Shown here: piece after piece, positions 10,721-64,000 of the stretch
Numbering within the stretch: the first letter of the stretch is position 1
Layout: each line of letters starts with the position of its first letter
NCBI GenBank assembly: GCA_963705985.1
Contig: CAVPLK010000002.1
Location: forward strand, 39,855 to 103,854
Source of the DNA: an uncultured Gemmatimonadales bacterium
GTDB taxonomy: Bacteria > Gemmatimonadota > Gemmatimonadetes > Gemmatimonadales > GWC2-71-9
Direction of reading: 5' to 3'
Length of the DNA stretch: 64,000 bases
Notes under the pieces: model-generated
What the model was told of the DNA's origin: nothing
Databases searched by the model: none
The model's input: only the letters and a program-made list of their open reading frames with translations
Position numbers and translations under genes: made by a program

Positions 10721-12199
10721 ATGACACCTCTCGATCTCACCGTCATTGTTGCGTATTTCACGCTCACCCTGGGCGTGGGGCTCTGGGTATCCCGCTCCCA
10801 GTCCACCGCCGGCGACTATTTTCTCGGCGCGCGCAACCTCCCCGCCTGGGCCATCCTCTTTTCCATCGTCGCAACCGAAACCTCCGCCATCACCGTCATC
10901 TCGGTGCCGGGCCTCGGCGCGCGTGGCGACCTCACCTTCCTCCAACTCACGTTCGGCTACCTCCTCGGCCGATTTGGCGTGGCGCTCTGGCTCCTTCCCG
11001 GCTACTTCCGCGGCGACCAGGAAACGGCGTACCAGCGGATCGAGAGTCGCTTCGGGCCGACGAGCCGGCGCCTCGTGTCGGTCGTCTTTCTCCTCACCCG
11101 GCTGCTGGGTGACGGCGTCCGGATCTTCGCCGGCTCGATCCCGCTCGCGCTGCTGACCGGCTGGTCGGTGCCCACCGCCATCGTGGCGATGGGCACCATC
11201 ACCCTCGTCTACACCCTCCTCGGCGGATTGAAGGCGGTGGTGTGGTCGGACGTCATCCAGCTCGCGGTCTACGTGACGGGCGGCATCGCCGCGCTCGGGA
11301 TCGCCTGGCACCTCGCCGGCGGCGCCGACCAGGCGCTTGCGGCCGCTGCGGCGGCGGGCAAGCTCCGGATCTTCAACCCGGTCATCAGCTTCACCCAGAC
11401 CTACACCCTGCTCGGGGGCCTGATCGGCGGCGCCCTGCTCTCCGCCGCGTCGCACGGCACCGACCAGCTGATCGTGCAGCGCCTGCTCGCCACGCGCTCG
11501 CTGCGGGACGCGCGCATCGCCGTCGTCGGCTCCGGTGTGGCCGTCATCCTCCAGTTCGCGCTCTTCCTGCTGATTGGTTCCGCGATCTGGGCGGCGGGAC
11601 TCGCCCCCGATGACATGCCGGCCGACCAGATCTTCTCGCGCTTCATCCTCGACCAGCTACCCGCCGGGCTGGCAGGACTGATGGTGGCCGGAATCCTGGC
11701 CGCGGCGATGAGCACCATCAGCTCGTCGATCAACGCCCTGGCCAGCTCGGTGACCCACGACCTCTACTCGTCCTGGACCGGCGTGAAGGATCCCGTCCGG
11801 CTGCTCCGGCTCGGCAAGCTCTTCTCCGCCGGCTGGGGCATTGCGCTGATCGGCGCCGCCCTCTTCTTCGATCAGCTCTCCCGCGGCGGCGACACGCCGG
11901 TGGTGGTCCTGGCGCTCTCCATCGCGTCCATCACCTATGGCGCGCTGCTTGGCACCTATGTCCTTGCGGCCCGGGTGACGCGGTCCCGCGGCCGGGACGT
12001 GGTCGGCGCCGTGCTGCTGTCGGTGACGGTCATGCTCTTCGTGGTCTTCTCGGCGCCGCTGTCGGGGTCCCCAGGACTCGGGTGGCTGGCGCCGGTGGGC
12101 AGGCTGGCCTGGCCGTGGTACGTTCCTGCGGGCACCGCCCTGACCATCCTGGCAGGCTGGCTCCTCAGCACCCTTCCTCACGCGGAGAGCAGGCGATGA
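10721..12199 (+). CDS. Sodium:solute symporter family transporter
   Basis: 492-aa polytopic ORF with an SSF-type N-terminus (DYFLGARNLPAWAILFSIVATETSAITVISVPG). Its stop overlaps the next start (ATGA). Confidence 0.88.
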   Translation: MTPLDLTVIVAYFTLTLGVGLWVSRSQSTAGDYFLGARNLPAWAILFSIVATETSAITVISVPGLGARGDLTFLQLTFGYLLGRFGVALWLLPGYFRGDQETAYQRIESRFGPTSRRLVSVVFLLTRLLGDGVRIFAGSIPLALLTGWSVPTAIVAMGTITLVYTLLGGLKAVVWSDVIQLAVYVTGGIAALGIAWHLAGGADQALAAAAAAGKLRIFNPVISFTQTYTLLGGLIGGALLSAASHGTDQLIVQRLLATRSLRDARIAVVGSGVAVILQFALFLLIGSAIWAAGLAPDDMPADQIFSRFILDQLPAGLAGLMVAGILAAAMSTISSSINALASSVTHDLYSSWTGVKDPVRLLRLGKLFSAGWGIALIGAALFFDQLSRGGDTPVVVLALSIASITYGALLGTYVLAARVTRSRGRDVVGAVLLSVTVMLFVVFSAPLSGSPGLGWLAPVGRLAWPWYVPAGTALTILAGWLLSTLPHAESRR

Positions 12200-58675: not shown

Positions 58676-59203
58676 CTACCCGCCTGCTGGCCGTTGAAAT
58701 CCGATCTGTTTCGCTGGCTTGGCATTTTCGTGAAGGAGTGCGCGGATCGCATCAAACACAGCCCTGAACTGCTGGTCGTACCGGGCCTCCATCGCATCGA
58801 GCTTCCGGGCCAACTCGGCGTGGGTCCCCAGTGCGACCCGCAGCTTCACAAAGGCCCGAACCACCTGCACACTCGTCTCCACGGCCACCTGGCTCTTGAG
58901 CACACTGGCCAGCATCACCGCGCCGTGCTCGGTGAAGGCCATAGGCACATGTCGACGCCCGCCCCACGCCCCACTTGAGGTCGCAATTTGCGACCTCAAG
59001 TTGGCGGCTTCCTCCGGCGTCAGTTGGAACGCAAAGTCGCCCGGAAATCGCGCCCGGTTCCGCCTGACCTGCTCCTTGAGCCGCTTGGTCGTTACGCCGT
59101 AGAGTGCGGCCAGGTCGGAGTCCAGCATCACCCGGTGCCCTCGCACCTCCCGGATCAGGCTGGCTACTCCCTCGACCACCACCGGATTCTCACTCTCGGG
59201 CAT
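58676..59203 (-). CDS. ORF6N (KilA-N-related) domain DNA-binding protein
   Basis: IREVRGHRVMLDSDLAALYGVTTKRLKEQVRRNRARFPGDFAFQLT...HVPMAFTEHGAVMLASVL matches the ORF6N family pattern. Confidence 0.8.
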   Translation of the reverse strand: MPESENPVVVEGVASLIREVRGHRVMLDSDLAALYGVTTKRLKEQVRRNRARFPGDFAFQLTPEEAANLRSQIATSSGAWGGRRHVPMAFTEHGAVMLASVLKSQVAVETSVQVVRAFVKLRVALGTHAELARKLDAMEARYDQQFRAVFDAIRALLHENAKPAKQIGFQRPAGG

Positions 59204-59339: not shown

Positions 59340-59523
59340 GGCCATGCAGAAAGCCCCACCGCAGAAGTCGCAGTGAGGCAGTGAGTTACTGAGCGGAGCG
59401 GAGAGCGCGGGGTCGGGGGGGAGCGACCGTCTGGGGCCGACTTGCAAAACCATCGGGCTCCGGGGCTGGCGGCTCGTAACGTAACTCTTAGGATACAGGC
59501 TCACCACAAACCGAGGGGTTCCA

Positions 59524-59877
59524 ATGCGCTATGTCGACAGCTTTGTCCTGCCGATCCCCACCAAGAACCTCAAGAAGTACCTGGGCATGGCACGGCTGGG
59601 GAAGCGGCTGTGGATGAAGCACGGCGCGCTCGCCTACATGGAGTGCGTCGGAGACGATCTCAAGAACGCGTGGGGCGCCACCTTTCCCAAACAGATGAAG
59701 CTGAAGCCGCGCGAGTCGGTGATTGTCGCCTATATCGTGTTCAAGTCCCGGGCCCATCGCGATCGAGTCAACGCCAAGGTGATGAAGGAGCTGATGGGCG
59801 ACGGCGTCGAAATGGAGATGCCGTTCGATCCGAGGCGTGGGTTGTACGGCGGGTTCAAGGTGATCGTGGGGAGTTGA
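59524..59877 (+). CDS. DUF1428 family protein (second paralog)
   Basis: MRYVDSFVLPIPTKNLKKYL...KSRAHRDRVNAKVMKE. Confidence 0.85.
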   Translation: MRYVDSFVLPIPTKNLKKYLGMARLGKRLWMKHGALAYMECVGDDLKNAWGATFPKQMKLKPRESVIVAYIVFKSRAHRDRVNAKVMKELMGDGVEMEMPFDPRRGLYGGFKVIVGS

Positions 59878-59994
59878 GGGGGGGGCTGAGTTGATCTTCG
59901 GGCAGTGAGATCGGATATGGTAAGGCGACAGGCGAAGCCGGCATTCTTGCCCTTGGCACGAGCACCCATCCCGCAAGTCCCCCACGGAGGTCCC

Positions 59995-60942
59995 GTGCGA
60001 GCGACAATCTTGGCCTGCCTCCTATTGGTAACGGCGACCCCTGCGGCGCCCCAGGCCTCCCGGGTCCCCCTGCGCAAGGGAGATCGCGTCTACCTGCGAG
60101 TCCCCCTTCACGAGTTCCACCACGTCCCCACCAAGTTCCGGCTCTGGCTCGCTGAAGCGGCAGTCAGGGATTCGGTCGTGGTGGTCAATGGCGATCCGAA
60201 CTGGCAAAGCTCCGGCTTCCTCTACCCGAACGCGGTGCGCGTGTCTGACATCAGGATCGATGCGCGCAATCACCTCTGGCGTGCTCGATTTGCCCGCGGG
60301 CGGGAGCCTGACCTTACGCTTACGGTGCCCCTTTCGGATACCGCCGCTGTGATCCCCCGATTGGTCGCCGACTCCGCCGACTCCGCTGCGGTCGTCGCAG
60401 AATCCTACGCCGCCATCGGGCGGCGCATCTTCCCGGGAGCCGCTGACTCGCTGCCCGCTCCCATTCTGAGTCGACTCCTGGGCGTCATCGACTCCCTCCT
60501 GGGGGGCGACTCGCTTCGCCTCGTCGACTTCCAGGGCGTGCCGTACGTCGAGATCCCGGCGCCGTCGCCTGAAGGAGTCTACGTCTACTCGAACCTGCCA
60601 CCGCCCCGGCAACGTGGTGCGGTGATGAACAAGCTGGTCATTCCGATCGTCTGCCATCTCGGGCGTGCCGACACGAGTTTGCCCCGATCGCTCCGGTTCA
60701 GCATTCCGGTTCGAGTGACGGTGTACGACTACGTCCCGACGGGGATCGTGGTCGCAGACCTGTTGCTCGGAACGGGAGCCACGACGTCACGTGGGAAGCC
60801 GGCGTATCAGGACGTGACCTTCTACTTTGACGGAGAACTGGCCTCTCGGTTTGCCGCTGGTGCCATTTCGAGCCAGGAGCTGGTGGATCAGTCCGTGGCG
60901 ATCCTGAAGGGCAGTTATGTGGGGGTGGACCTCTCCCAATAG
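59995..60942 (+). CDS. Hypothetical secreted protein
   Basis: GGAGG lies 4 nt upstream of the GTG at 59995. The signal peptide is VRATILACLLLVTATPAAPQAS. About 315 aa with no family I recognise. Confidence 0.55.
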   Translation: MRATILACLLLVTATPAAPQASRVPLRKGDRVYLRVPLHEFHHVPTKFRLWLAEAAVRDSVVVVNGDPNWQSSGFLYPNAVRVSDIRIDARNHLWRARFARGREPDLTLTVPLSDTAAVIPRLVADSADSAAVVAESYAAIGRRIFPGAADSLPAPILSRLLGVIDSLLGGDSLRLVDFQGVPYVEIPAPSPEGVYVYSNLPPPRQRGAVMNKLVIPIVCHLGRADTSLPRSLRFSIPVRVTVYDYVPTGIVVADLLLGTGATTSRGKPAYQDVTFYFDGELASRFAAGAISSQELVDQSVAILKGSYVGVDLSQ

Positions 60943-61056
60943 GGCGTACGCCCATCGCGTGGGTCGTGCCCTGGGGCCCGTTTGGCTGGAATTATCGGAG
61001 GGGGAAGATTTTGCCAAAGTCCCGCAAGGCCTTGGCGCAGCCGAAGGTGAACGAAG

Positions 61057-61098
61057 TGGAGCGGAGGGGGATCGAACCCCTGACCCCCTGCTTGCAAA
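61057..61098 (-). other. 3' fragment of a tRNA-Ala(UGC) gene (anticodon loop to discriminator); putative attachment-site remnant
   Basis: The minus strand reads TTTGCAA (loop, anticodon TGC) GCAGG GGGTC AGGGG TTCGATC CCCCT CCGCTCC A. This gives a perfect T arm, a 5-nt variable loop and a 3' acceptor with U70 (Ala identity). No D arm or 5' acceptor exists upstream (CCAAC replaces CCTGC and the homology stops there). Confidence 0.7.
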
Positions 61099-61174
61099 GT
61101 TGGATCGTAAGTCATTGTCCTGCAACAACTTGTAGCACTCACGCGTCGTTCTGGGCATCGGTGTTGTGAGTCGG

Positions 61175-61199
61175 GGGCCCGAAAGGGCCCTTTTGTTGT
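61175..61199 (+). terminator. Rho-independent terminator-like hairpin
   Basis: GGGCCC gaaa GGGCCC (a perfect 6-bp GC stem) followed by TTTTGTTGT. Confidence 0.6.
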
Positions 61200-61205
61200 C
61201 CTGGA

Positions 61206-61636
61206 CACACAACAAAACACACAACAGGGGCCGATTTCGGCTGAAATCGTGGTTCGTTCGCCACATTCCATTTGCAGGCCGGAAGAAGAATTCCGCAACG
61301 ACTGCCAGTGCAGTTAACTTGTTGTCTTGTCTAGCGTTACTGGTCACTTCAGCGCCCCTCCATTTCACCCAACTCACAACAGACTCACAACGGTTACCCC
61401 CTTTGGATTTCGTAAGCAGGGGGTCGAGCTGATTCCAATAACTGAAGGCAGGGGGTCAGCGGTTTGATCTGAACTCACAACAGAAAGCCTGGTTCTCCCG
61501 CACCAACTCATGACAGAAGGGCTACTCCGCCGCCCGAACTCACAACAAATACGCAACGCTGATTCCATTTCGCCGAGGAAAGCAGGGGGTCCGAGGAAGG
61601 CAGGGGGTCGGAATGTTTGAGTTGGGCTCGCAACAG
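61206..61636 (+). repeat. Phased array of short direct repeats C(T/A)CACAACA(G/A), with companion motifs GCAGGGGGTC (x4) and GCTGATTCCA (x2)
   Basis: Direct copies start at 61206, 61218, 61372, 61383, 61473, 61506 (degenerate), 61538 and 61627 (CTCGCAACAG). Inverted copies are at 61163-61171 and 61618-61624. GCAGGGGGTC is at 61416, 61448, 61582 and 61600. GCTGATTCCA is at 61428 and 61558. The hairpin GATTTC ggct GAAATC is at 61233-61248. Confidence 0.75.
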
Positions 61637-61773
61637 GGACGCCTGCCGAGGTATTTTGGACCTGAGGGCGGTATCGTGGAAAACTGGGAAATCCCCACCA
61701 CGCGTTCACGATGGCAGCCCAACGGACGTTCGTCCGGGCGTATCTGAGTCTTGTACTGACCCTGGAGTAAGAC

Positions 61774-62157
61774 ATGGCCCCGCGTCGCACAGTGCTATTG
61801 CTTCTTCCACTCGCGGTGCTGGCGATCGCGGCTTGTGCTTCCGGCTCCGCCATCGTTACAGGCGACACGAGGCCAGCGGTCCCTCAGGAGCAAGTGAAGA
61901 TCTATCTCGAACCACCAGACACGTTCGAGGTGATTGGCCTCGTCAGTGCATCCAGCGACGCCGGATGGACGGATCAAGGATCACTGAACTATGCGATTGC
62001 AGAGTTGAAGAAGCAGGCTGCGAAGCTTGGAGCGAATGGAGTGCTCATAGTCGCCACTGGCGAGACGACGACAGGTGTTGTTAATGGGAAGTACTATTCC
62101 ATCCCTGTCACCGCGAAGACCGTTCAAGGCAAGGCCATCTTCGTCAAAGAGCAGTAG
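61774..62157 (+). CDS. Small lipoprotein (127 aa), cassette-like ORF 1
   Basis: GGAG lies 7 nt upstream of the ATG. The signal and lipobox are MAPRRTVLLLLPLAVLAIAAC. The C-terminal part (AIAELKKQAAKLGANGVLIV) resembles the small DUF4156/YbjQ-like lipoprotein fold families; this is inference. Confidence 0.65.
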   Translation: MAPRRTVLLLLPLAVLAIAACASGSAIVTGDTRPAVPQEQVKIYLEPPDTFEVIGLVSASSDAGWTDQGSLNYAIAELKKQAAKLGANGVLIVATGETTTGVVNGKYYSIPVTAKTVQGKAIFVKEQ

Positions 62158-62225
62158 GCAGTGACGTCAAAGGTGCGGTCTTACCAGCACGTGCAGCTGC
62201 GGAGTACGCGCTGGCTCTGGCGGCC

Positions 62226-62318
62226 GCCGCACCGTAGGTTCTAACTGAGGGCGACGCGGCGGCTGCCACGCAGCGCCCTCGCAGCTGATACGCCAGTCGG
62301 TAGGCAGCTCAGTTCACA
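62226..62318 (+). repeat. attC-like GC-rich imperfect palindrome, copy 1
   Basis: GCCGCAC..AGGTTCTAACTGAGGGCGACGCGGCGGCTGCCACGCAGCGCCCTCGCAGCTGATACGCCAGTCGGTAGGCAGCTCAGTTCACA. GAGGGCG (62247-53) pairs with CGCCCTC (62274-80). It is alignable to copies 2 and 3. Confidence 0.45.
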
Positions 62319-62336
62319 TCTTCGTGCAGGCGGCCA

Positions 62337-63251
62337 GTGGACCTTTCCCAGGTGTTTCAGCTCTTCAGCCGGCGCCAAGCGCCAGCGGTCAAAGGCCTCA
62401 AGACGCTCACCGAAGAATTCCGGAATAGAGTTCTGATGAGGGTGCGCGACACATTTGGACACTCGGGATACGATCTTCACCTTTGGACGGAGGTTCATCA
62501 GAAACTCACCTACTTGGTCGGAAAGCTAAGCCTCACTGGCATTCCGGCCTCTCAAGGCCACCAGGTGGACGTGCTGCGATTCCTCGCGACCTGCTCAGAT
62601 GCCCATTTCCTAGATTTTATCGAGGCGGTGTTTCAGACTAGCGCGATCGATCGCATCACCAATACCGCCCAGCTGGCGCTGGTCCGTGATATCAACACAT
62701 TCTTCAGCATCGACGATCTACCATACGCCCTCACCGATTTCGTCTGGGTGACTGGCACATCCGTCGTCCACGGCTCTACCCACACGGTGATGACCCGGAC
62801 CGCCATTCCGCAGGTTCTCTTGAAGGAGTCTGGCTCCATTCACGAGACCATCGTCAAACCGGTACTTGAACTGATCGCCGACCCGCGCTTCAGTGTCGTG
62901 AACACCGAGTACAGGGAGGCGTTGCAGGACTATCGCAAATTGGACTATGGGGATTGCCTTACCAAGTGCGGGAGTGCCTTCGAGAGCACACTCAAGGTGA
63001 TCTGCAGCGCCAATAGGTGGCCCTTTTCACCAAACGACACTGCTGCGCCACTGCTCAAGACAGTTGTCTCGAGGTCAAGCCTCGATGGGTATTTTGAACA
63101 GCCGTTAATGTTGATCGCAACGGTCCGGAACCGCTTGAGCAAGTCTCACGGCGGTGGGACCGTCCCTCGGGAGGCAGAAAAGCACGTCGCTGAATGGGCC
63201 ATGAACGCAACGGGTGCTGCCATCCTATTGCTGGTCCAAGAATGTTTGTAA
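62337..63251 (+). CDS. AbiJ-like abortive-infection protein (AbiJ N-terminal domain + C-terminal HEPN-type RNase domain)
   Basis: The N-terminus VFQLFSRRQ...LTEEFRNRVLMRVRDTF matches the AbiJ N-terminal pattern (FS-x-R ... LRNRLW). The C-terminus has the HEPN R-x4-6-H signature in ATVRNRLSKSHGGG, preceded by a conserved acidic helix (GSAFESTLKVI). Confidence 0.6.
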   Translation: MDLSQVFQLFSRRQAPAVKGLKTLTEEFRNRVLMRVRDTFGHSGYDLHLWTEVHQKLTYLVGKLSLTGIPASQGHQVDVLRFLATCSDAHFLDFIEAVFQTSAIDRITNTAQLALVRDINTFFSIDDLPYALTDFVWVTGTSVVHGSTHTVMTRTAIPQVLLKESGSIHETIVKPVLELIADPRFSVVNTEYREALQDYRKLDYGDCLTKCGSAFESTLKVICSANRWPFSPNDTAAPLLKTVVSRSSLDGYFEQPLMLIATVRNRLSKSHGGGTVPREAEKHVAEWAMNATGAAILLLVQECL

Positions 63252-63265
63252 TCGCTAATGGAGCC

Positions 63266-63352
63266 GCCGAACCAGCGCATGCAGGTGACGAGGGCGCATG
63301 TCTTGCGGCCGCGCCGCCGGCGCCCTCGCCGCTGATGCGCGTTTCGTTAGGC
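63266..63352 (+). repeat. attC-like GC-rich imperfect palindrome, copy 2 (best preserved, 87 bp)
   Basis: It begins GCCGAAC (63266-72; compare R'' RYYYAAC) and ends GTTAGGC (63346-52; R' GTTRRRY); these are complementary at 6 of 7 positions. The arms CAGCGCATGCAGGTGACGAGGGCG and CGCCCTCGCCGCTGATGCGCG pair with bulges. Confidence 0.5.
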
Positions 63353-63395
63353 CGCCCGCGTCAGATGTAATTTCATCTCGCCATTGGGAACCCGA

Positions 63396-63917
63396 ATGCC
63401 CAGGAAACATGCGTTATCGCAATACCACTGTGGCGTGGCGGCGGAAGCGTTTGCAGCCGGCTTGCTGGCGCGGTGCGGCTGCGACGTACTGGTGCAATAC
63501 GGCGCCAATCAGCCCGAATACGACCTCGTGGCAAAGCGTGCACAGCAGGCTCTATGGATCTCGGTAAAGGGTAGCCAGGACGGCGGCTGGGGCTTAACCC
63601 AGTCGTTCAAGAAACCAGGCGTGTCGTACGCTGAGGCCGCCAAGGCGTGGGCTGCGAAGCATGATCCGCGAATCATTATGTGCTTTGTGCAGTTCAAAGA
63701 CGTGGCAATCGACGCATGTCCCGAAGTCTATCTGGCACCAATCGGGGACGTAGCGAAGCAGATGGTCAAAGCGCGGAACGGCCTCGGAGATACCACGATC
63801 CAGACATTCCACACTTGGGCCACTGGCCAATGTGCAGGTTGGACTGACGCGATCCCTTCCTCCTGGAGTTTCTCTGCCAAACGGCTTGATCAGATGTTTG
63901 AATGGGCGGCGGCCTAG
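63396..63917 (+). CDS. PD-(D/E)xK nuclease-fold protein (hypothetical)
   Basis: The order of elements is AAEAFAAGLL (helix with Glu), EYDLVA (Asp strand), then WISVKGS (S-x-K strand). This is the classic restriction-endonuclease-like core. The start is ATG 63396 (TTG 63384 is possible). Confidence 0.5.
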   Translation: MPRKHALSQYHCGVAAEAFAAGLLARCGCDVLVQYGANQPEYDLVAKRAQQALWISVKGSQDGGWGLTQSFKKPGVSYAEAAKAWAAKHDPRIIMCFVQFKDVAIDACPEVYLAPIGDVAKQMVKARNGLGDTTIQTFHTWATGQCAGWTDAIPSSWSFSAKRLDQMFEWAAA

Positions 63918-63940
63918 CCAGCGCATACCGCTGGCAAGGG

Positions 63941-64000
63941 CGCGCTGGCTTGGGCGGACGCCACGCCTTAGGTTGTGAACTGAGGATGCCGCGGCGGCTG
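63941..64000 (+). repeat. attC-like element, copy 3 (left arm only; truncated by the window end)
   Basis: GCGCTGGCTTGGGCGGACGCCACGCCTTAGGTTGTGAACTGAGGATGCCGCGGCGGCTG aligns base-for-base with the left arm of copy 1. TGTGAAC (63974-80) is the exact reverse complement of GTTCACA at 62312-18. Confidence 0.45.

Follow-up and report, generated by a model that had tools for sequence, protein, structure and literature searches.

A probable integrase-less gene cassette array of a Gemmatimonadales integron family beside a tRNA-Ala fragment

We analysed a 64,000-nucleotide stretch of DNA (the window) from an uncultured Gemmatimonadales bacterium (contig CAVPLK010000002.1), the final 2.2 kb of which holds three open reading frames (ORFs), all on the forward strand and each followed by a GC-rich imperfect palindrome. 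An earlier note, made by reading the letters alone, had described these palindromes as related attC-like elements and the region as an integron cassette array, either a cluster of attC sites lacking integron-integrases (CALIN) or an integron with its integrase out of view. The three ORFs and their palindromes (62178-62305, 63266-63352, and 63912 to beyond 64000) were found where that note had placed them, apart from the left edge of the first palindrome. The features of the array are as follows.

ORF1: 61774-62157, forward strand, 127 amino acids, small predicted lipoprotein with a signal peptide and the lipobox IAAC
attC1: 62178-62305, forward strand, long form of 128 nt, with R'' GTCTTAC (62178-62184) and R' GGTAGGC (62299-62305)
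Cassette 2: 62300-63346, forward strand, 1047 nt, carries ORF2
ORF2: 62337-63251, forward strand, 304 amino acids, AbiJ-like / STM4504-family protein
attC2: 63266-63352, forward strand, short form of 87 nt, with R'' GCCGAAC and R' GTTAGGC, centre mostly absent
ORF3: 63396-63917 (or from a TTG start at 63384), forward strand, 173 amino acids (or 177)
attC3: 63912-64000 (window end), forward strand, long form, with R'' GCCTAGC, R' beyond the window

Whereas the backbone of the window has a GC content of about 69%, the DNA from about position 61000 onward has 55-58%, and within it the elements stand out at 69-74% against 56-58% in the cassette bodies. The gap between stop codon and R'' is 20 nt for ORF1 and 14 nt for ORF2, ORF3 overlaps its element, and the distance from the R' of an element to the start of the next ORF is 31-43 nt; both the short spacing and the lower GC of the ORFs had been remarked on in the earlier note. 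Three attC sites on the forward strand lie inside 1.8 kb. Each unit is one promoterless-looking ORF together with an attC site (no sigma-70-like promoter was detected for the array genes), and the units have the properties of gene cassettes, namely a single co-oriented ORF, an attC site close behind it, and content that varies between arrays.

The GC-rich blocks that the earlier note saw as shared among the elements include a 20-mer, CGCCCTCGCMGCTGATRCGC, which has just two occurrences in the 64 kb searched, at 62274 and 63321, where 0.09 would be expected by chance. A 20-mer scan of one genome per species returned at least 117 tiles, many of them from Gemmatimonadales metagenome-assembled genomes (MAGs), and among the matches listed the Gemmatimonadales tiles carry up to ten copies per 8 kb, on the same strand and spaced 600-1100 bp apart. 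One such integron, on CAVVKJ010000008.1, extends for about 26 kb and comprises 33 cassettes or more (tiles L100, L013, L006, and L047). Within the related long arrays the attC sites are about 128 nt long and 77-95% mutually identical. Between the window and related arrays the element alone matches, at 77-88% identity; the window ORFs had no match in any other array compared, and cargo differs from array to array. Across 83 cassettes of related arrays, attC sites are a median of 569 bp apart, 69 cassettes have their longest ORF co-oriented, and GC content is 62% compared with 65-69% in the flanks, a pattern that the window units fit at its low-GC end. No array of the window's attC family was found on viral contigs, which gave chance or tRNA matches only.

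Iterative nhmmer searches converted these copies into a 128-nt family, together with shorter forms that lack the centre. The difference between the long (128 nt) and short (87-95 nt) forms is confined to this variable centre, and short forms also occur in integrase-linked arrays (e.g. L103:5527-5622, 87.6 bits). The consensus of 103 full-length copies reads GCCTAAC-CA-GCGCAT-G-CAGCTG-N-CGAGGGCGC...GCGCCCTCG-CAGCTG-ATGCGC-CATTC-GTTAGGC, in which the outer cores GCCTAAC and GTTAGGC are canonical for attC sites (RYYYAAC / GTTRRRY). The imperfect arms with unpaired bases described in the earlier note are a feature of the family as a whole: in its RNAalifold consensus structure, an R box of 7 bp is separated from an L box by an unpaired, asymmetric spacer, and two bases bulge out of the R''/L'' arm, at alignment columns 20 and 27. 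Among 44 diverged members, 93.6% of cells are paired and 28 of the 38 pairs show compensatory changes, values that none of 500 shuffles reached and that compare with 24-42% in slid controls, with the caveat that the alignment was itself fitted to the model and that its member sequences are related.

The link to integrons comes from seven loci (L047, L082, L103, L086, L079, L032, and L095) in which a co-oriented tyrosine recombinase stands at the upstream end of the array, with the first attC site 550-780 nt after the intI stop codon. The recombinase at L047 (2253-3281, reverse strand) matches TIGR02249 at 421.6 bits (cut-off 265) over positions 1-315 of 315, and it aligns end to end with VchIntIA (PDB 2A3V; E=2e-79), integron-specific region included; its homologs at the other six loci are 62-99% identical. 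In all seven of these complete integrons, intI lies upstream of cassette 1 and reads in the same direction. Because these arrays lie directly downstream of a TIGR02249-positive, VchIntIA-like integrase, the family is the attC family of Gemmatimonadales chromosomal integrons. Integrase-less arrays accompany complete integrons in related MAGs, as with L107/L108 and L111/L027 alongside L047 and L095.

A covariance model built from 52 integrase-linked copies, none of them from the window, matches all three window elements on the forward strand: 62174-62309 (86 bits, E=6e-21), 63262-63356 (71.1 bits, E=6e-17), and 63908-64000 (48.7 bits, E=7e-11), the last being 3'-truncated and spanning model positions 1-93 of 136. 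The next-best match anywhere in the 64 kb has E=0.6. By this measure, the three elements are assigned to the Gemmatimonadales integron attC family, which bears out the earlier description of the region as an attC array.

The elements differ in their state of preservation. attC2 had been delimited exactly by the earlier note, from its GCCGAAC start to its GTTAGGC end; it has two broken pairs (36 of 38 kept), retains both bulges, was scored as having conserved cores, and folds as bottom-strand DNA at -30.1 kcal/mol (z=-3.2). Judged by its pairing and cores, it appears structurally intact and looks recombination-competent. In attC3, the R'' has one core mismatch and contains the TAG stop codon of ORF3; this element may be competent, its right arm being out of view. 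attC1 scores 86 bits where typical long family members score 120-164 bits under the same model, and it is therefore taken to be decayed: seven of 38 model pairs are broken, the conserved GTT/AAC triplet is gone, and the cores depart from the attC pattern. Its bottom-strand DNA fold (-34.5 kcal/mol, z=-1.6) is no better than those of shuffles and does not form the R box, compared with z=-8.9 (the integrase-proximal reference) and z=-6.9 for reference folds.

Several details of the earlier note needed revision at this level. For attC1, its view that the cores are degenerate holds, as does the R' GGTAGGC, but the R'' is GTCTTAC and not GCCGCAC, and the element starts at 62178 rather than near 62225. 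The GAGGGCG of attC1, which had been treated as an aligned block, falls not in the stem but in the central variable region, where a subtype of the family reads TAGGTTCTAACCGAGGACG. The TGTGAAC of attC3 (63974-63980) falls in this central region as well, at a site where family members read TCTAAC. This heptamer is indeed the reverse complement of GTTCACA at 62312-62318, but the meaning given to the match, as a trace of cassette circularisation, does not hold; the match is coincidental, because the first sequence lies 7 nt outside the R' of attC1 and the second lies in the centre of attC3.

No integrase gene was found with the array, as the earlier note had already observed. A tblastn search of the window with Gemmatimonadales IntI returned no homolog or remnant (best E=0.78), and where intI usually lies there are unrelated genes (encoding a peptidase S51, an ORF6N protein, a DUF1428 protein, and a 345-aa protein without assigned function), a tRNA fragment, and a 670-nt stretch of non-coding repeats. 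A CALIN is defined as at least two same-strand attC sites, spaced by less than 4 kb, that have no integron integrase nearby (Cury et al. 2016, PMC4889954). On its visible side the array has this composition, and no complete integron lies within the window. Since the window contains no intI, and intI in this clade always lies upstream of cassette 1, we classify the array as a CALIN, an ordinary and already described kind of element. More fully, we consider it highly probable that the region represents the proximal portion of a cassette array of the integron type without an adjacent integrase, belonging to the Gemmatimonadales chromosomal-integron attC family.

A number of points weigh against this classification. 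Rfam gave nothing at gathering thresholds and only noise, with no attC-type family, at E<=10. The integrase search is confined to the 64-kb window, including 61 kb upstream of the array. The window stops inside attC3, which places the size of the array and the downstream DNA beyond view, and under the IntegronFinder rule the label would change to complete integron if an intI lay within 4 kb of the final attC site. In addition, the degeneration of attC1 is clear, and no upstream cassette boundary can be identified for ORF1, with which the array begins: with filters off, the covariance model found no attC site or attC remnant upstream of ORF1, and there is no attI-like sequence there. Because of the degenerate attC1 and this missing boundary, ORF1 may not be a cassette gene.

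These points open the way to other explanations. An integrase past 64000, at the distal end of a rearranged or inverted integron, would make the system complete; the DNA downstream of attC3 is beyond the window, and complete integrons with this attC family do exist in related MAGs. However, the upstream, co-oriented intI in seven of seven such integrons, together with the tRNA fragment, repeats, and unrelated genes at that position and the lack of any intI-like sequence in the 61 kb upstream, makes such a layout quite improbable. A generic intergenic repeat of the repetitive extragenic palindromic (REP) or terminator type, unrelated to integrons, is hardly credible. GC-rich hairpins right after stop codons, foldable on both strands, are what such a repeat would produce, yet the scattered copies that the earlier note had named as the sign of a REP family are absent from the other 62 kb of the window, the copies in other genomes are same-strand, regularly spaced, and start beside intI in seven of seven cases, the family cores are canonical, no T-run follows the elements, and no terminator-like site was called at any of the three. 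The REP or terminator explanation is thereby largely refuted.

The array might also be a fossil, its attC sites relics that no longer recombine and its ORFs ordinary fixed genes of an island. The decay of attC1 (its low score, the lost GTT of R' and AAC of R'', and its shuffle-level fold), one core mismatch each in attC2 and attC3, and the absence of an integrase from view all point in this direction. Nevertheless, attC2 retains its R' GTTAGGC, most of its pairs, and both bulges, and its 71 bits come near the 79-88 bits of short forms in integrase-linked arrays; moreover, IntI enzymes accept attC sites of divergent sequence (Cury et al. 2016, PMC4889954). We therefore regard a wholly fossil array as unlikely, though less so than the complete or REP-type alternatives.

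If the region is a CALIN, its cassettes would behave according to established integron biology (VchIntIA-VCR, 2A3V; Cury et al. 2016). The bottom strand of an attC site would fold into a hairpin when single-stranded, IntI would recognise its R and L boxes and extrahelical bases, recombination between two attC sites would release a cassette as a circle, and recombination between attI and attC would reinsert it. With no intI in cis, the cassettes could therefore be moved only by an IntI acting in trans from elsewhere in the genome. With the GTT/AAC cleavage triplet of attC1 gone and much of its pairing broken, ORF1 and ORF2 can probably no longer move. Cassette 3 (63347 onward) alone still looks excisable and could be released through recombination of attC2 with attC3, again given IntI in trans.

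To the left of the array lie two further features, the first of which confirms the tRNA fragment reported in the earlier note.

tRNA-Ala(UGC) 3' fragment: 61057-61099, reverse strand, 43 nt, truncated at the anticodon stem
Leader: 61100-61773, no strand assigned, non-coding and repeat-rich, 55% GC, between the tRNA fragment and ORF1

The fragment covers the 3' strand of the acceptor stem, the T arm, the variable loop, and the anticodon loop with the 3' half of its stem, and it is identical to the 3' part of an intact tRNA-Ala(TGC) at 11162-11204 of a related locus, L174 (MAG contig CAWEMJ010000008.1). ARAGORN found no complete tRNA in the window. A relaxed Rfam search gave a partial tmRNA/tRNA-clan match at 61054-61088 on the reverse strand (E=4e-4); a tmRNA origin was considered and rejected, as the sequence matches tRNA-Ala(UGC), anticodon loop included. 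The leader contains five copies of AACTCACAACAG and four of AAGCAGGGGGTC on the forward strand, which are inverted copies of the anticodon-stem/variable-loop segment of the tRNA, as well as a 58-nt direct repeat (61368-61425 / 61534-61591); a 27-nt inverted repeat (61070-61096 / 61443-61469) joins it to the tRNA fragment. Within the leader there is no attC, attI homolog, or intI remnant and no Rfam or Pfam match, and it has no homolog in any related locus compared, being absent from the orthologous site in L174.

Comparison with L174 gives the insertion its left boundary. The gene for the 345-aa protein, to the left of the array, is matched there by a homolog of 98% identity, window positions 59351-61075 align to 9358-11081 of L174 at 98.7%, and L174 has an intact tRNA-Ala(TGC) and no attC site in 21 kb; the same MAG holds one of the complete integrons (L095). 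Since the tRNA in L174 is intact and array-free, the DNA from 61100 to beyond 64000 is an insertion relative to it. A search through orthologs of the L174 right-flank gene led to two related genomes, L182 and L183, and two short Logan contigs, L184 and L185. In L182 and L183, the tRNA and its right flank are kept (a Big_2-like gene, followed in L182 by a beta-lactamase-family gene), while the 3' side of the tRNA differs among the four genomes compared. This combination of a conserved tRNA and right flank with a variable 3' side leads us to view the site as an integration hotspot.

The array and its leader were thus most likely inserted at tRNA-Ala(UGC), either brought in with a tRNA-targeted island or built inside one. 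This origin is favoured because both lie in DNA inserted at a tRNA gene of which a related MAG has an intact copy without an array, and it is unlikely that the array is the remnant of an integron that once stood in situ. That the segment from 61100 to beyond 64000 is, or lies within, a site-specific integrative island is a proposition we find rather probable. Against it, a single junction is available, with no island integrase or second att repeat in view, and left of 59351 the synteny with L174 is lost as well. The 98.7%-identical segment with the DUF1428 and 345-aa genes is therefore bounded by variable DNA on both sides. A more specific version, in which the array is cargo of a site-specific island that targets the anticodon-loop-to-3'-end segment of tRNA-Ala(UGC), can be offered only tentatively. 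If true, an integrase other than IntI would move whole attC arrays en bloc between Gemmatimonadales chromosomes, recipients would be seeded with CALINs that a resident IntI then mines, and the leader (61100-61773) would be the recombination arm of the island.

Further observations were made around this junction. The intact tRNA-Ala regions compared are L174 11063-11234, L183 3734-3890, and L182 6164-6237, and both L174 and L183 carry an extra 19-nt piece of the tRNA 3' end at a distance of 66-82 nt from the intact gene, which looks like a leftover of past integration and excision. An ORF6N-domain gene, of a type typical of mobile elements (58676-59203, reverse strand), lies just left of the synteny break at 59351, where L174 instead has a PemK toxin-antitoxin pair. 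The Logan contigs share the conserved right flank of the tRNA-Ala (L185 at position 1, L184 at 1-230); one stops at the exact junction base of the window (CAGGTG...), and at that point the other is joined to AT-rich DNA in which the tRNA 3' half is a different one. For L184, the conserved 5' half of the tRNA may be the seam of a chimera, and more generally these contig ends could reflect breaks in the assembly graph, a chimera formed at a repeat, or additional hotspot variants. Lastly, a stretch of L081 (7921-7964, reverse strand), which precedes the first visible attC site of another Gemmatimonadales array by about 30 nt, resembles window positions 61023-61066 over 46 nt at 85% identity, a match too weak and too short to interpret.

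Turning to the array genes, ORF1 matches phrog_27267 at 1.4e-12 and has weak DUF4156/YdgH-like similarity. ORF2 scores above the Pfam cut-off for DUF7014 and below the cut-offs for AbiJ_NTD4, Abi_C, and the STM4504 family, features that make it a candidate abortive-infection cassette gene. Its 56 metagenomic homologs are 36-51% identical, the closest at only 51%, and homologs with 41-43% identity reside in arrays of other attC families (L147 214-1252, L142 141-1247, and L144 245-6878); in L147, a GGCTAAC...GTTGGAC element stands immediately 3' of the stop codon of the ORF2 homolog. Given its occurrence in cassettes of unrelated metagenomes, this protein family is a recurrent integron cargo. 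ORF3 has no PHROG match and weak YraN/PD-(D/E)XK-like similarity (E=1e-3 to 6e-2), by which it may be a small nuclease cassette. No ORF3 homolog was found beside the ORF2 homologs, which fits independent cassettes. PADLOC matched none of the three ORFs. All three genes are also present in sequencing run ERR12037370. Integrons have recently been shown to store phage-defence genes (bioRxiv 10.1101/2024.07.02.601719; PMC12614218), and ORF2, as an abortive-infection-like gene in a cassette, would add another example consistent with that role.

Integrons have already been reported from Gemmatimonadota (PMC8618304), and our findings leave the current understanding of integrons unchanged. What they yield is a well-defined attC family and a covariance model for Gemmatimonadales integrons, as well as an instance in which an attC array was recognisable by sequence-only reading in a poorly studied, high-GC soil phylum.

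Gemmatimonadales MAGs resemble the Vibrio cholerae superintegron, with its Vibrio cholerae repeats (VCR), in having long arrays, a homogeneous attC family, and a full-length VchIntIA-like IntI; they differ in that intI is co-oriented with the cassettes, whereas that of Vibrio is divergent, and the window itself has no IntI. The extrahelical bases differ as well. On the bottom strand, the bulged bases of VCR and attCaadA7 are G and T, while those of the Gemmatimonadales family are C and N. Integrons with an 'inverted integrase' are described in Treponema, Planctomycetes, Cyanobacteria, and others (Boucher 2007, as cited in PMC3575428). The intI co-oriented with the array in seven of seven Gemmatimonadales loci is a layout shared with this group. 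Salmonella genomic island 1 (SGI1; PMC3575428) likewise houses a cassette array inside DNA at a conserved chromosomal target. It differs in carrying a complete mobile class 1 integron with resistance cassettes and in its insertion at trmE, whereas the window has an integrase-less array of an environmental attC family at tRNA-Ala, with the island integrase not in view.

The closest likeness is to CALINs (Cury et al. 2016, PMC4889954; IntegronFinder 2.0, PMC9024848), which likewise have at least three same-strand attC sites less than 4 kb apart with one ORF each, no intI or intI pseudogene nearby (here, in the window), cargo unrelated to resistance cassettes, and coexistence with complete integrons in related genomes. 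The window array departs from them in being cut by the window end, in the decay of its first attC site, and in its insertion at tRNA-Ala. The routes listed for CALINs are insertion at secondary sites, loss of intI, rearrangement, and IntI-independent genesis of cassettes (PMC4889954). Insertion at tRNA-Ala is not on that list, and a CALIN in an insertion at a tRNA hotspot bears on the origin of integrase-less arrays.

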